Positions 413-6,199 of a DNA stretch of 6,199 bases are shown one piece after another; position 1 is the first letter of the stretch; every line of letters begins with the position of its first letter. The translations under genes and the position numbers were made by a program. The stretch covers positions 633,473-639,671 of the forward strand of contig CAJINV010000022.1 in NCBI GenBank assembly GCA_905178155.1. Reading direction: 5' to 3'. Below the pieces are notes generated by a model. That model was not told the origin of the DNA, did no database searches, and saw only the letters and a program-made list of their open reading frames with translations. Source of the DNA: Amoebophrya sp. A120. Its lineage: Eukaryota > Protista > Dinoflagellata.

Positions 413-3400
413 ATGAAGCACGCACTGGCATCTCGGGTGCTCCTGCTTTTCTGGAGCACCAAATCTGTCCTGGTCGCCGCATCGGCCTCCAGCGACTCGT
501 CGCACACCAGAATCACTATGCGTTGCAAACGTACTTATCGTACTCGTAGAAATGCATCACAAATTTCGATTTCCTCAGCAGGAGAAACAAAATTTGTTCA
601 AATGCGAATTTAGCTTAAGAACAAGACTTGTAATGCATAACTGCAAGTACTACGAGTAGGTACGATACTTTTGCGCAGGATAATCCCCGACGGGCAGCAG
701 CAGGTGACCAACCCTCAAACGGCGCAGGAGTCTCTTGCGGGAGCTGGTGCAGCCGAATCTCCCAAAGCTACCGACGATGTGGTCCTTGAACCCGACAGCA
801 GTAGTACTTTTTTGACACCCAGCACGAGCGGCGCAGAAGGTGCCCTGCCAGAGTACGCCTGGGACCGGGTTTATTCGTTCTTGGCCGGCAATGGGGTCGC
901 GTCGGGCTCCTTCGATCAAAAAGCCTATGCTTTGCAAACATGTCTGGGTCTGGAAACTTGTGATGCTGGGTGGCGTATCATGAGGAGGCCGCGAGTCCTG
1001 GCTCAGCATGACAAGTTTTTGAGCTTCTAGATGTTGGCTCTTCTGCATGACAAACTGCGTTTCTGCATGACAGAAAAATGGGGCTCTTGGGTAAAGTGCA
1101 TGACAGATTTAAGAGTCATGCCAGACAAGCATGACAAACATGCACTTTTCCATACCCAGACAACATATTTGCGCTTGATAAAGCCGACCGCAAAGCAACT
1201 GTGGAAAACCTCGAAAGCCACCACGCAAAGACCAAGCAGGCGGCTGTGGTGGCGGCCGACCCGGGCACAATCCGTCCGGCGGTTTCTCAGAAGTGGCTCC
1301 AAGCTGCGGAAATCGTGCGCGCTGCTGGCCACAGTGGCGATAGTGGTACAGTAGGAAGCCAATCTGCCCTTACCGATGCTCATCTTGGCACCGCGACGAG
1401 AGACACCATGCTGCAAAAAGTTCTGAAGCGGAAACACCGTCTAGGCCCAGAGGGGACTGACGCAACCTCAAGCCTTGCTGCCGCAAGCAAGGCGAGTCGG
1501 AAGTTTGTGGAAAAAAAGACGAAGAATTATTTGCAAAACTGGTACAATAAAGCGACTGCCGGCATCGACAGAGCCCCTGGTCATTATCCTTTCATCGCAA
1601 AGGGACTGTTTTCTTGCACGGTGGAAGACTTTTATGACCTGCTTGCCGAGGCTATCCTGAGTAAAAACGTACCCACACCAGAGTCAAGATGGGGAGTTTG
1701 CAACACAAACCTAGGAGTTTTGTGAGTCACGCATGACAAGTTGCACTATGCAGTGTAGTGCAGGTCGGCAAGTGCAGCCGCATCACAGATTCATCTGCTC
1801 ATCCTGTTCACAGCATCACAAATTCCAAAACACGATTGGAAATGGCTCTCATGGGGATGCGCATTACAAGTCTTCCTGTCTTTGCAAATCTGCATTACAA
1901 CTCTGGTGTGGGTACGTTTTTACTCAGGATAGAGGCTCCGGACGACGAGATCGCGCACGCAGTGATGATCCACGGCGACGTCATGCCGAGCTGGCTTTCT
2001 GCGAACATTTTGCGCGAAAAGCTCCGGCCGCTCATCCAAGGAGCGCGCGAGCGTGGAGGTGGGACCGGTGGCCCCCGCCTGGAGGGTCACGGGGCAGGAA
2101 CGGCGACCGAAAGCCCCCCGACAAGCGCTGCTGGAATCACCCTTCCACACGGTGGCAGCCTGAGTGCGCAGGGCGAGTCCTTCATTGCTGTGCACAACGA
2201 CGTATGGGCAGATGACGGATTACATGGGCCAGACATGAGCGCAACCTCCCGGGCCCGCTTTCTGGAGCAAGTCGTGCGAGAGGATAATCCAAGTGCGTAC
2301 TACCCGAGGTTGTTTGTTTCGAACCCCGATTATGACCCTGACGTTCTTGTTCGTGGTCGCAGCCGCCGGACGGGCGATCGCATCACGTTGCGGCATATCA
2401 AATGCAACTATGTCTGGGTGTGGAAGATTGCCAGGTTTGTCATGCATATTTTGCATGACGCATGATGCCTGTAGTGCATGACTTAGCATCACAGATTTTT
2501 GGAAGGCATCCTAATGCCTATTCCGCATGGCAAATGCCCTCTCCGCGTAGCACAATCTGGGCTCCTCTTCCTGGTCATAGCACTACAGATCTTTTGAGAA
2601 TCCAAAGACAGCATTACAAGTTTGGATCCACCTTCCAGACCCAGACATTTTTGCGATGCATATGGCACAAGAAAAAATTTCAGGGGCGGTACGCCTACAG
2701 CGACGGTGGAGTTCATTCTACCTCGAGCATATTCTGAGAAAAAATCCCCCCTCCCCATACTACTCAAAACGGAAATTTGTGATGCTGATTTGTGACCACA
2801 AATCAGCTTCGTCTTGCATATGAGGCATCAAATGGGAGCCGTATCCCGCACTCGACAGCAAATCTGTCATGCGCTTTTACCTACCGCGCACCTGTCTGTC
2901 ATGCCGAGCTGCTAGCCTTTTGCATACTCAATCAGGCTTGAAAAATTATGCCTTCACGCTCTTGCCGCAATTATACACAGCTGATTTGTGTACAGAAATC
3001 CAGCATGGGGTGGGGGTTTTTTCATATTTCCTTTTTTGAATGGGGTGGGGGTTTTTTCATATTGATAGAGCAGTGGCTCCGATACCCTGCGTTACACTAC
3101 GGACTTCGACGCCACACGGGATATGGGGGTGTCAGGATTGAGATCGTCAAAGTTGAAATAGTTTGTCATGCATAAAATCGATACCAGTTGGAAGCCCAAT
3201 TTTCAAGCGGCGCATGACAAATTTAGGCACCGTCGAAATCCGGTCTGTCATGCTGTTTAGGGACAGAAGGCGTCTTTTGTCGTGCTACTTTACCAGCCCT
3301 ACCGCAGACCTCAAACAGGCTGACTGTCGGCCTCATTTGCCATCCCTGCAAGACAGGTACGTCATGCCTTGCATTTTATGCATGACAAATCATTTCAACT

Positions 3401-3588
3401 TTGTCGATTTCAAACCTGACGCTTCCATACGGGATCTCCTGAACGTTACCGCCGAGGAAGTCCATTTTGTCATCGTAGAGTCGCCGACGGTCATGACGCA
3501 TATTCGCTGCAAGCCGAAGAAAAATTGGGAATGCAAGCTGCAGATTTGTCAGCACAGCAGCAACGACCCTTTCTCGTCTCAGGGGTAA
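413..3588 (+). CDS. Gene 1: reconstructed 7-exon, 510-aa hypothetical protein, probably secreted. Exons 413-516, 688-925, 1186-1652, 1937-2395, 2668-2729, 3073-3121, 3435-3588; boundaries can slide within the 5-bp repeats.
   Basis: Removing six TIR elements plus one repeat copy each gives 1533 nt with no internal stop, from ATG 413 (context aaaaacaATG) to TAA 3586-3588. Junctions read SHTRI(T/P)DGQQ, FDQKADRKATVE, DLLAEAPDDEIA, RITLRHKKKFQG, HSTSSSGSDTLR and DATRDLLNVTAE. This joins parts of track ORFs 389-613, 671-1030, 1201-1725, 1758-2465, 2462-2737 and 3163-3588. The N-terminus MKHALASRVLLLFWSTKSVLVAASA looks like a signal peptide by eye. No family recognised with confidence. Confidence 0.85.
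517..682. mobile_element. Element E1 (166 bp): degenerate TIR element / putative non-canonical intron 1 of gene 1
   Basis: Left end TATGCGTTGCAAAC...TACTCGTAG versus reverse complement of right end TATCCTGCGCAAAA...TACTCGTAG (about 22/33 matches). Flanks ATCAC (512-516) and ATCCC (683-687). Contains an in-frame TAG at 611-613, and removing 171 nt keeps the frame. Confidence 0.72.
926..1180. mobile_element. Element E2 (255 bp), family A: putative non-canonical intron 2 of gene 1
   Basis: TIR core TGTCTGGGTCTGGAA (941-955) / TTCCATACCCAGACA (1148-1162). Perfect repeat AAGCC at 921-925 and 1181-1185. About 87% identical to the reverse complement of E7. Removing 260 nt restores the frame. Confidence 0.9.
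1653..1931. mobile_element. Element E3 (279 bp) with a perfect 32-bp TIR: putative non-canonical intron 3 of gene 1
   Basis: TATCCTGAGTAAAAACGTACCCACACCAGAGT (1653-1684) is the exact reverse complement of 1900-1931. Perfect repeat GAGGC at 1648-1652 and 1932-1936. Removing 284 nt restores the frame. Confidence 0.93.
2396..2662. mobile_element. Element E4 (267 bp), diverged family A: putative non-canonical intron 4 of gene 1
   Basis: TIR core ATGTCTGGGTGTGGAAG (2410-2426) / CTTCCAGACCCAGACAT (2632-2648). Flanks CGGCA (2391-2395) and TGGCA (2663-2667). The right end TTCCAGACCCAGACATTTTTGC is identical to that of E7. Removing 272 nt restores the frame. Confidence 0.88.
2730..3067. mobile_element. 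Element E5 (338 bp), family B: putative non-canonical intron 5 of gene 1
   Basis: TIR core GAAAAAATCCCCCCTCCCCAT / ATGGGGTGGGGGTTTTTTC. Perfect repeat GAGCA at 2725-2729 and 3068-3072. The interior is collinear with the reverse complement of E8. Removing 343 nt restores the frame. Confidence 0.88.
3005..3063 (+). repeat. Exact 24-bp direct duplication of the inner right TIR of E5
   Basis: ATGGGGTGGGGGTTTTTTCATATT occurs at 3005-3028 and 3040-3063. Confidence 0.9.
3122..3429. mobile_element. Element E6 (308 bp) with a ~57-bp imperfect TIR: putative non-canonical intron 6 of gene 1
   Basis: 3122-3178 (TATGGGGGTGTCAGGATTGAGATCGTCAAAGTTGAAATAGTTTGTCATGCATAAAAT) pairs without gaps with 3373-3429 (reverse complement TATGGAAGCGTCAGGTTTGAAATCGACAAAGTTGAAATGATTTGTCATGCATAAAAT). 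Perfect repeat CGGGA at 3117-3121 and 3430-3434. Removing 313 nt restores the frame. Confidence 0.92.
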
Positions 3589-4847
3589 GGCGGTCCACCT
3601 GACATTGGTACCTTTTTTGGTGCGCCGAACTTTTGGACTTTGACAGCATAACATTCTTATGCAGTTCGGCGTGGTCAGACTGAATAGAGATCCAGCTCCT
3701 GCTGCGCCATGATATCACTTGTGATGTCTGCTGCTGCTAATGACCTCTGTTTGGCGGCCTTATCTTTCCGGAAAAGATATGGTCGAAGCTAGGATATTTC
3801 ACATGCACTTACACACTGCTTTTTCTATACGATTTTTTACCGCAGAATGCCTTATTCTTTGGTCGTGTCCTGTCGTGATCGTTCATATACAATTTTTTTT
3901 ACCGCAACTCTGAGGAAGCCAGTTCTTGCTTCTATCATCAAGGCCGGGGCACAGGGGAAAGGTTTCGACAAAAGACCATTAGCCTTCAACAACTAGGAAG
4001 AACTTTATCATCACTTTGATTTTAAAGCGCTATTGCAAAAGATTTTGATTCAGGGTCGTGCGCGCAAGCGCAGCGCGCAGCTTATTTTATTTTTGTGCAG
4101 TCCATTCTACAACAACGTTAGATGACACATCAGTAGGCTACACTGCTGATAAATTTCAGCCAGGAACAAATAGTGCCGCCGACGTTCGTCTTCTCGCTAG
4201 AACTTATGCGCCACTATCTTTTTGACCACTGCCGCTAGCCACGCTTTGATACGCACTGGGCCGACGACCATCTGGGTATGCCATGTTGTGCTGGATCTAC
4301 AGTTCCCGCAGGTGGCGCGGTGCTTGGTCGACCTCGATCCTGTTCGCGTCAAGTAGTACAAGTCCTGGTATTCCTTCGGGGGACAAAGCAACCCCGAGCG
4401 AGAGCTCGACGAGATCATTTCTTCGATTGATATCGCCATCACCGAACTGTAGGAAAATACGCAGATCTGTCATTGTCGTTTTGCGATAAGTTTTCGCGAG
4501 ATGTCAGTCAAGGGTGGACCTGCAGTGAAGATCACTGTTTCAACGAATTGCTTTTGTGTGATGAGACATTTCTTTTGCAAATATAGAATTTAACACCCCA
4601 GAAATGCCAGCCTTTTAGTTTTATGCACCTTTTTGAGGCAAATATCGCGGTCGTCTTCTACTTAGTTCATTTCTTATTTCTTACCTCACATAAGTGCCAG
4701 CACCGGCTTCTTTCCTTAAATATTTTGTCCATATTTTTCTCGTGCGATTTCACTAAGCGCAGAACAAGGTTTGTTCTGTCATCAGTACGCGCCGCGCTCT
4801 ACTTGCCGCAACTTCAACATCTCTAGCTGTAATATACGGATAGAATT

Positions 4848-6199
4848 ATGGTCGCCTTTTTGAAGAAAAAGATGCTCGGGTCAATGTTGGGCCCATGCAT
4901 GATCTTATTCAGCGCAGGAGCCCCTCGCTTCGCGCTGGCTGCCGCGCCAGGAGCAGCACCTTCTGGAGGTCGTGATATTTTTGCAGGAACCGGCCTAGAA
5001 GATACAGGCGCGCTTGAGGTTGTCGGGCGCAGGAGGCTATCAAGTGCAAAAATGTCTGGGTCGGGAAGAATGCAAGTTTGTCATGCTTGTCTCACATGAC
5101 TTTTGAATTTGTCATGCACATTACCCAAGAGCCCCATTTTTCTGTCATGCAGAAACGCAGTTTGTCATGCGGAATAGGCAACACCTAGAAGCTCAGGAAC
5201 TTGTCATGCTGAGCCAGCACCTGTGGCCTCCTCATGATACGCCACCCAGCATCACAAGTTTCCAGACCCAGACATTTTTGCATTTGGTAGAGGCCGGCGC
5301 CGGCCGCTGGCGAAGATGGTGGTCGCCCAACGAGATTTCTGCGCCGGACTTTTCCTTATCGTAAGGAAAAATCCCCCCTCCCCATATCAAAACGATGTTT
5401 CTGATGCTTGATTTGCGTACACAAATTAGATTTGTCTTGCTGGCGAGGACTGCAGGCCCATATCAAGCCTGAGTAGACAGGTTTGGGCCTAGGCGCTTAG
5501 CATGACAGACGTCTACGCTGTAGGAGCAACAGCATGACAAACCGCCTGTAGAATGTGGCGGAGCCTGTAGATTTGCCTTCATGCAATACAGCGACGATTT
5601 GTGGTCTCAAATCAGCATCACAAATTTTCAGGAGTGTCCCGGTTTGGTATGGGGAGGGGGGATTTTTCCTCACAATATTCCTGATCAGCATGCTAGTAGC
5701 GGGTCCAGCTTTTTATCCGACAGAAAAGTACGGACTTATGTTTACCTCAACACTGGAAAATCATTTATTGTGTTTGTCATGCAATTTTCAGCATCACAAA
5801 AAAATTCCTGTTGTCTGTTCAACATGGCAAGCTTTTTCGGTACATATCGTTATCCTCCCCATGCACATCGTGCATCACAAATGCGAATTCCGTTGTGCGG
5901 GGCGAAAAAGTATCGGCAAAATAGTTGTCTCTGCAAAGCAGAATTTTTAGCGGCACAAATTTTTGTTGAGCAAAACAAGTCACAAAACACAGATTTAGAT
6001 ATGTTTTTTTGCTGCCATGGCGATGGCCGTACTTTTCTGAATGATAATCTTCGACGACGCAGCCAGAGATCGGAATTGTGAATCCCAACAACCTGTGCTG
6101 GATGATCAGCTTGTCGCAGAGTTTGGTCTACATTCCGTCCCTGCACGAGGAAGCCGCGGCGGTGTGCGCGCGAAGAGATGAGGAGCAGCGATTGCTAGG
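4848..6199 (+). CDS. Gene 2 (3' end beyond window): ubiquitin-specific protease (USP, peptidase C19)-like protein with a signal-peptide-like N-terminus. Exons 4848-5037, 5295-5356, 5683-5713, 6052->6199.
   Basis: Removing three elements gives MVAFLKKKMLGSMLGPCMILFSAGAPRFALAAAP...VVGRRRPAPAAGEDGGRPTRFLRRTFPDQHASSGSSFSTTQPEIGIVNPNNLCWMISLSQSLVYIPSLHEE..., open to the window edge. GIVNPNNLCWMISLSQSLVYIP (6072-6137) fits the USP Cys box GLxNxGNTCYMNSxLQxLxxxP, with Cys at 6096-6098 and Asn five residues upstream. In unspliced DNA this frame is closed by TAA 6045-6047, with no ATG before the Cys. The His box is not in the window. The start could be ATG 4848, 4872 or 4884. Confidence 0.8.
5038..5289. 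mobile_element. Element E7 (252 bp), family A, inverted relative to E2: putative non-canonical intron 1 of gene 2
   Basis: Left TATCAAGTGCAAAAATGTCTGGGTCGGGAA versus reverse complement of right TACCAAATGCAAAAATGTCTGGGTCTGGAA (27/30). Perfect repeat GAGGC at 5033-5037 and 5290-5294. Removing 257 nt keeps the frame open. Confidence 0.92.
5357..5677. mobile_element. Element E8 (321 bp), family B, inverted relative to E5: putative non-canonical intron 2 of gene 2
   Basis: Left TATCGTAAGGAAAAATCCCCCCTCCCCATA versus reverse complement of right TATTGTGAGGAAAAATCCCCCCTCCCCATA (28/30). Perfect repeat TTCCT at 5352-5356 and 5678-5682. Removing 326 nt keeps the frame open. Confidence 0.92.
5714..6046. 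mobile_element. Element E9 (333 bp): putative non-canonical intron 3 of gene 2
   Basis: Left TATCCGACAGAAAAGTACGG versus reverse complement of right TATCATTCAGAAAAGTACGG (17/20). Degenerate flanks CTTTT (5709-5713) and ATCTT (6047-6051). Removing 338 nt joins the upstream exons in frame to the USP Cys box. Confidence 0.85.

Follow-up and report, generated by a model that had tools for sequence, protein, structure and literature searches.

Background

The genome of the dinoflagellate Amoebophrya sp. A120 contains tens of thousands of non-canonical introns, and the accessible text of its description records that neither a transposase nor U1 was found (Farhat et al. 2021, PMC7789003). Introners are described there as elements of about 240 nt with ends made of TAT, seven variable bases and AAA, direct repeats of 3–5 nt and non-canonical splicing, and one A120 family, number 38, has been listed with “5-bp TSD, TA/TA Termini” (TSD, target-site duplication) and classed as Ginger-like (Gozashti et al. 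2025, PMC12130899). Here, we investigated a stretch of 6,199 nt from A120 (GenBank contig CAJINV010000022.1, positions 633,473–639,671; “the window” denotes this whole stretch) that holds nine elements, E1 to E9, and a short motif, GCATBACA (B = G, C or T), which a reading of the letters alone (the sequence-only reading) had noticed inside all nine. The elements are known Amoebophrya A120-type introners, because their ends, direct repeats and host protein match the A120 descriptions.

An internal motif of this kind is not described in the accessible text of the literature searched (including PMC7789003, PMC12130899, PMC10045372, PMC12730594, PMC11282704, PMC10368747, PMC12005148, PMC6482013, PMC9860276 and PMC11453091); theses, Repbase entries or supplementary figures could hold one. 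Two spellings of the motif gave no match in 12 of the 14 supplements of PMC12130899, and the sole match in PMC6482013 is a primer. The motif is a real and general cis-element with a spacing rule, apparently undescribed, within a known class of introners. The reading that we favour, and hold to be somewhat probable, is that its copies form an array of subterminal sites at which the mobilising machinery binds DNA, comparable to the subterminal repeats of hAT transposons.

Motif content of the window

An exact recount found 35 matches to GCATBACA in the window, 21 on the forward and 14 on the reverse strand, the same total over both strands that had earlier been counted by hand. The tallies for E1 to E9 (2, 6, 5, 3, 3, 4, 6, 3 and 3) were reproduced as well, as were the E2 sites at 1006, 1045, 1065, 1098 and 1129, to which a further copy at 959 on the reverse strand belongs. 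All 35 copies lie within the 2,519 bp of the nine elements and none in the remaining 3,680 bp; copies with one mismatch number 16 within elements and 7 outside. Chance had been put at under one copy, a slight underestimate, as 200 dinucleotide shuffles of the window gave a mean of 1.01 and a maximum of 5. An unbiased ranking of k-mers was topped by GCATGACA and GCATCACA, each present in eight of the nine elements and absent outside them.

The motif was first proposed as 8 bp long, and this core is indeed enriched, but every copy continues with a purine at position 9 and 34 of the 35 also at position 10; the true site is therefore about 10 bp, GCATBACARR (R = A or G). Among the tolerated variants, A at position 4 and G at position 7 occur often. 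E2 and E7 are inverted copies with 90% identity, and the nine elements are thus not independent; E2, E4 and E7 are members of one family. A scan of the window against Rfam gave no match.

The motif in a second lineage

To look beyond the window, a pattern of the terminal inverted repeats (TIRs) that does not contain the motif was used to find at least 144 loci of one assembly, and counts come from 67 large, non-redundant loci (601,250 bp) selected around a single TIR family, small loci having been dropped as anchor-biased. One protein, from locus L008, shares 87% identity with the corresponding A120 protein, and the assembly therefore represents a second Amoebophrya lineage. Eight of the nine window elements have relatives there that are 69–93% identical, and E9 has none in the 601 kb. 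At this level of identity, introner families called strain-specific in the accessible text of PMC7789003 are common to the second lineage.

Motif-blind detection gave 396 candidate elements, from which 343 were kept at a TIR score of at least 30, a threshold above the scores of all 17 candidates obtained from one shuffle. The motif is carried by 332 of these 343 elements, and by 225 of the 235 that lie outside the anchor family; no exact copy was found in three singleton elements. Its density is 11.5 per kb in elements vs 0.28 per kb in other DNA (four control 8-mers stay below 0.35 per kb), and DNA outside elements thus carries it about 40 times less often, not equally often. The claim that it is shared by elements with dissimilar TIR cores extends to all 12 families with at least three copies, each of which carries the motif at its own positions and in its own orientations. 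The TIR pattern had no match in viral contigs; a tandem-motif pattern picked out 120 viral loci, none resembling the elements, which were taken as unrelated.

The supposed confinement to elements stands within the window, but the DNA outside detected elements of the second lineage contains 135 copies vs 41.8 expected, an excess of about 3-fold. Relaxed element candidates, the neighbourhood of element-like DNA or contig edges hold 30 of them, and the other 105 are unaccounted for. These copies could be host sites, as would suit a chromatin or silencing function in which a host protein marks the elements and the sites are kept since binding protects or positions active copies, with no direct role in cutting; independence from strand and respect for helical phase (see below) suit any reader at the DNA level. 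The excess can, however, be explained by undetected old elements, a silencing target would be expected to be lost from successful lineages and is here conserved, and a fixed distance to the ends ties the array to the termini. We consider a chromatin function quite improbable.

Conservation of the motif

Change was measured against family majorities in 11 families with 306 copies. Mismatch to the majority was 9.8% at the seven fixed motif positions and 9.2% in the TIR core, vs 25% in the interior, 31% in the 8-nt flanks and 30% at the wobble position (position 5). The motif thus changes 2.5-fold less than neighbouring bases, which speaks against decay at a common rate, and 32 of 45 motif sites fall within the top 10% of interior windows. 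The wobble position, although as variable as the interior, is almost never A (10 vs 902 copies). Substitution rates from singletons, 1.3% in the motif and 2.2% in the interior, were set aside, as singletons are hidden by variable columns.

Recent and old change were split by nearest-neighbour pairs only. The ratio of motif to interior change is 0.35 (confidence interval (CI) 0.29–0.43) in distant pairs and 0.54 (0.38–0.76) in close pairs; the closest bin gives 0.72 with a wide interval (CI 0.21–2.46, 18 copies). Motif change per site is 3.3%, of the same order as the decay of the duplication (4.8% per pair of sites), and copies with a mutated duplication show more motif change (4.5% vs 3.0%, p 0.016) and no higher interior change. 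All shared sites were lost in 17 of 295 copies vs 12.9 expected under independence. This pattern of motif change fits selection on moving lineages. In a test blind to the ends, TAT did not stand out as a protected splice signal. The element ends erode about as fast as the motif, so that motif erosion would also be compatible with a redundant role in splicing.

Spacing, phase and strand

At the family level, 10 of 16 same-strand motif pairs within 70 nt are spaced by 31–33 bp, with at least one such pair in eight of the 11 families (null 1.1, p 5e-5); within the window it is 8 of 20 pairs (null 1.07, with E2 and E7 counted twice). Back-to-back pairs recur at 44–48 and face-to-face pairs at 34–35 and 66. 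Among 995 copies, only 2 lie less than 30 nt from an element end and 442 lie at 30–49 nt, and the outermost copies cluster at 32–36, 40–45, 53–55 and 67 nt. The phase of these outermost copies has its best period at 10.5–11.5 (Rayleigh p ~2e-4, n = 19, not corrected for the scan over periods). Three helical turns between tandem sites would suit a protein oligomer on one face of the helix. Tandem duplication was rejected as the origin of the 31–33-bp spacing, as spacers are 16–38% alike vs 27% in the control.

Common descent, or inverted motif pairs that merely lengthen an RNA stem, might account for such an array with no protein reader, and two observations are in its favour: some BLAST hit joins 328 of the 343 elements, and outward-pointing copies at the two ends are complementary. 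Positions and orientations nevertheless differ by family, spacers between paired motifs are unrelated (28% alike across families), stem pairing requires no fixed sequence, the avoidance of A at an otherwise variable wobble position is left over, and in each of E3, E5 and E8 the exact copies all share one strand. We regard descent or structure alone as very unlikely.

A codon model assigned an orientation to 185 of the 343 elements, with 141 of 142 agreeing within loci. Families are inserted in genes in both orientations, and the oriented elements hold 250 sense and 308 antisense motif copies; 41 of the elements have no sense copy, 28 no antisense copy and 7 neither. The intact fraction is 204/398 for sense and 243/419 for antisense copies (p 0.06). 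The mixed orientations noticed in the window hold across families as well. A strand-specific RNA splicing enhancer is unlikely, because there is no sense preference and no strand is present in all elements; joints in the presumed RNA described next are found for E3 and E8, whose copies are sense only, and also for E5, whose copies are antisense only.

Removal of the elements from the transcript

Elements were searched as TAY...RTA segments with inverted ends and a 5-bp flanking repeat, which recovers E1–E8, and the bounds of E9 were set from its sequence ends plus a joint. The inverted ends, TAT + 7 variable nt + AAA, reproduce the A120 introner logo. A border direct repeat of 5 bp is present in eight of the nine elements, six exact and two with one mismatch. 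Joints in contigs of run X3, presumed to be RNA, skip exactly the element plus 5 nt for eight of the nine; in E1, E4 and E9, whose duplication copies are unequal, the upstream copy is retained, and these three cases fit a cut near the first TAT and 4–5 nt past the last ATA. Although the flanks of E9 are alike at only 2 of 5 positions (5709–5713 and 6047–6051), its joint still skips the element plus 5 nt, which speaks against an artefact of template switching at direct repeats.

Deleting each element with one duplication copy opens the frame of host gene 1 (~510 amino acids). The exon at 1935–2393 has 100% identity to the A120 protein P0001, whose first 423 residues are identical to host gene 1 and joined identically across E1–E3; P0001 continues across E4–E6 with differences, and a Pfam search of it returned no family. 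With these joints in X3, presumed to be RNA, and the A120 protein joined alike across E1–E3, the elements are most probably removed from the transcript, rather than from the DNA, as non-canonical introns. The recorded RNA runs X9, X10 and X11 placed 3, 2 and 432 reads on the window, almost none on exons and with no joints. The 432 reads of X11 lie on 1653–1695: they match E3 in its 43-nt left end alone and depart from it in both flank and interior, and the window outside this interval is almost uncovered. They indicate an abundant transcript with the E3 TIR, possibly a retained element or a longer relative.

Canonical junctions with a GT/GC donor and an AG acceptor were not found: junction logos are flat in the 185 oriented elements, and the flanks of E8 and E9 lack AG. 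A terminal RNA stem is predicted in E2 (z −3.7) and E7 (z −6.0), one family in opposite orientations. Standard signals being absent at these junctions and U1 undetected in A120 (PMC7789003, accessible text), a non-standard signal is needed, and the array might provide it. A host factor would read the phased copies, most plausibly on DNA during transcription, and recruit excision from pre-mRNA; the motif, termed a possible “remove me” code by the sequence-only reading, would allow an insertion to be tolerated as an intron, by itself or in addition to a role in transposition. Such a reader at the DNA level would be indifferent to strand and sensitive to helical phase, the motif is common to unrelated TIR cores, some constraint persists in close pairs (0.54), and the two TAT-ended elements that alone lack any trace of the motif are nested and need no splicing of their own. 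A reader of the RNA strand is, however, disfavoured by the strand data. Seven of the 185 coding-context elements are without an exact copy and, at the sequence level, the frame still opens on their removal (six keep a copy of a relaxed pattern and one keeps two one-mismatch copies); the count of total losses (17 vs 12.9) reveals no rule of keeping at least one copy; motif number is not clearly different in coding-context (3.0) and other copies (2.8, p 0.09); and only a subset of the non-canonical introns are these elements according to the accessible text of Farhat et al. (2021), so other signals must work elsewhere. An excision signal of this kind is in our judgement unlikely.

Candidate readers of the array

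Near-universal presence, conservation, fixed geometry and the lack of a sense-strand preference are the grounds for favouring a mobilising factor. One shared protein of the mobilising machinery would dock on double-stranded DNA at several phased GCATBACARR copies and draw both element ends together for transposition, so that family-specific TIR cores, a variable spacer (positions 4–10) and the shared phased array would build the transposition complex. Family specificity would then sit in TIR positions 11–30. The reader, presumably a protein on DNA, could be a domain for DNA binding that the transposases have in common, an accessory protein of the transposon or a bending factor of the host; selection would act mainly on copies that keep moving, and splicing would depend on the terminal stem and not on the motif.

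Several observations weigh against a mobilising factor. No transposase or binding protein was found in the 75 longest of 199 open reading frames (ORFs) of more than 230 amino acids, or in 46 ORFs picked from 104 inside long elements. Different TIR cores normally need different transposases; a host factor would therefore suit the shared motif no less well. Close pairs remain constrained (0.54), and the terminal TAT erodes also, with 28, 15 and 17 of 449 ends changed at positions 1–3 (3–6%, some ends being misplaced). Identical motifs anchor the alignments and may inflate conservation, the families, linked as they are by BLAST hits, are not fully independent, and a period of 10.5 (B-DNA) is indistinguishable from one of 11 (double-stranded RNA). 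Two TAT-ended elements nested in other introners carry no motif (n = 2; Table 1), and the one in L013 apparently moved without it. A transposase is likewise not reported for A120 in the accessible text of Farhat et al. (2021, PMC7789003).

The earlier proposal of a common site for one trans-acting factor remains the natural reading of a motif that is conserved, common to unrelated TIR cores and fixed in spacing, although no protein that binds it was found among the scanned ORFs. From the three factors then named (a transposase, a chromatin marker or a splicing recruiter), a transposition factor fits best and the splicing idea gained no positive support from the present tests. The search for a long ORF-bearing partner element found no transposase in the 46 of 104 ORFs inside long elements; of two apparent 6-kb elements, in L064 and L066, the one in L064 proved to be a patchwork of internal pieces from different short copies. 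A bolder and rather unlikely possibility joins both functions, with one host or domesticated protein reading the phased DNA tag of all introner families, assembling ends for transposition and marking the RNA for removal. If true, introns would be defined by a protein array on DNA and not by splice sites, in a eukaryote with U1 undetected.

A universal, conserved and phased 10-bp array implies a single sequence-specific partner for many TIR families. The motif would be a first handle on the spread of introners, as bait for pull-down, as a signature for an autonomous element and for the sorting of “singleton” introns, and intron retention set against motif loss offers a genome-wide contrast that separates mobilisation from splicing.

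Features and side observations

Table 1. Elements, motif copies, joints and genes of the window, with two nested elements of the second lineage. Signs give the strand of each motif copy; joints are from run X3, presumed RNA.
Feature	Location	Strand	Details
E1 introner	517..682		166 bp, TAT...ATA, duplication ATCAC/ATCCC
E1 motif	554+, 629-		both inward-pointing
E1 joint	515>687		skips 171; joined in A120 protein P0001
E2 introner	926..1180		255 bp, duplication AAGCC, joint skips 260
E2 motif	959-, 1006+, 1045+, 1065+, 1098+, 1129+		spacings 33 and 31
E3 introner	1653..1931		279 bp, duplication GAGGC, joint skips 284
E3 motif	1731+, 1780+, 1813+, 1861+, 1892+		sense only; spacings 33 and 31
E4 introner	2396..2662		267 bp, duplication CGGCA/TGGCA, joint skips 272
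E4 motif	2438-, 2486+, 2611+		
E5 introner	2730..3067		338 bp, duplication GAGCA, joint skips 343
E5 motif	2778-, 2865-, 2897-		antisense only; spacing 32
E6 introner	3122..3429		308 bp, duplication CGGGA, joint skips 313
E6 motif	3164-, 3212+, 3246-, 3380+		
E7 introner	5038..5289		252 bp, duplication GAGGC
E7 joint	5037		joined form visible only as 17-nt loose end
E7 motif	5079-, 5110-, 5143-, 5163-, 5202-, 5249+		
E8 introner	5357..5677		321 bp, duplication TTCCT, joint skips 326
E8 motif	5500+, 5532+, 5615+		spacing 32
E9 introner	5714..6046		333 bp, flanks CTTTT/ATCTT alike at 2/5
E9 motif	5775-, 5791+, 5872+		
E9 joint	5711>6050		skips 338 = element + 5
Host gene 1	413..3588	+	~510 amino acids, hydrophobic N-terminus, interrupted by E1-E6
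Host gene 2 (predicted)	4848..6199	+	runs past window end, interrupted by E7-E9, frame open after removal
Nested element without motif	L012:1612-2134		523 bp, TAT...ATA, 8-bp direct repeat
Nested element without motif	L013:1641-1751		111 bp, near-fully palindromic, TAT...ATA, 5-bp duplication

Host gene 1, a single gene with six introners, has a 57% identical A120 paralog, P0002. In the second lineage, 228 of 298 two-ended copies have a 5-bp duplication that matches at all five positions. The two arms of one element match at 39–86% at positions 4–10 and at 93–95% at positions 11–13, that is, the TIR consists of two domains and a free spacer. A copy of the E3 family at L059:10097-10376 has a direct repeat of 8 bp and not 5 bp, and duplication length may vary within a family. 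In L064, at ~5850-6080, an introner contains an insert of ~230 bp with a direct repeat of ~16 bp, perhaps a retroposed piece.

Comparison with known systems

In CACTA (TnpA) and Harbinger (Myb-like proteins) transposons, a second protein acts on multi-copy subterminal motifs, apart from TIR recognition; their termini and duplication lengths differ from those of the present elements, and a second binding protein of this type was not found in the scanned ORFs. Euglenid nonconventional introns share the TIR-based stem, junction repeats and non-canonical borders, and differ in their terminal consensus and in that no internal multi-copy motif is described in the accessible text (PMC11282704).

The introners of A120 (PMC7789003, PMC12130899) agree with the window in ends, direct repeats, non-canonical splicing and a host protein identical to the A120 protein, although the published accounts, as far as their accessible text goes, cover ends and direct repeats only and mention neither an internal motif common to the families nor a rule of spacing or a test of conservation. 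Farhat et al. (2021) argue there against general mobilisation by a transposase, whereas the array described here argues for a shared protein–DNA step. IS3EU/GingerRoot and Ginger-like integrase transposons (PMC10045372, PMC12730594, accessible text) have TA..TA or TAY..RTA termini, as found here, but the duplications of IS3EU and GingerRoot are usually of 6 bp instead of the 5 bp of the present elements; an integrase-like DDE transposase was absent from the same scanned ORFs (75 of the 199 long ones and 46 of the 104 in long elements), as was any BED or hAT protein.

Duplications of hAT transposons are usually 8 bp (5–7 bp in subgroups; 5 bp in hAT5), and those of the elements here are 5 bp. 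The array itself resembles the subterminal repeats of hAT transposons (Hermes, Tol2 and Ac; PMC10368747, accessible text), where, as here, a short multi-copy motif lies inside the TIRs at constrained positions, with mixed orientation, asymmetry between the ends and sensitivity to position. Hermes uses a 4-bp site and its own BED domain, whereas the 10-bp site described here is common to families with different TIR cores. Unlike the hAT repeats, the array combines a tandem spacing of three helical turns with a place in elements that are also spliced.

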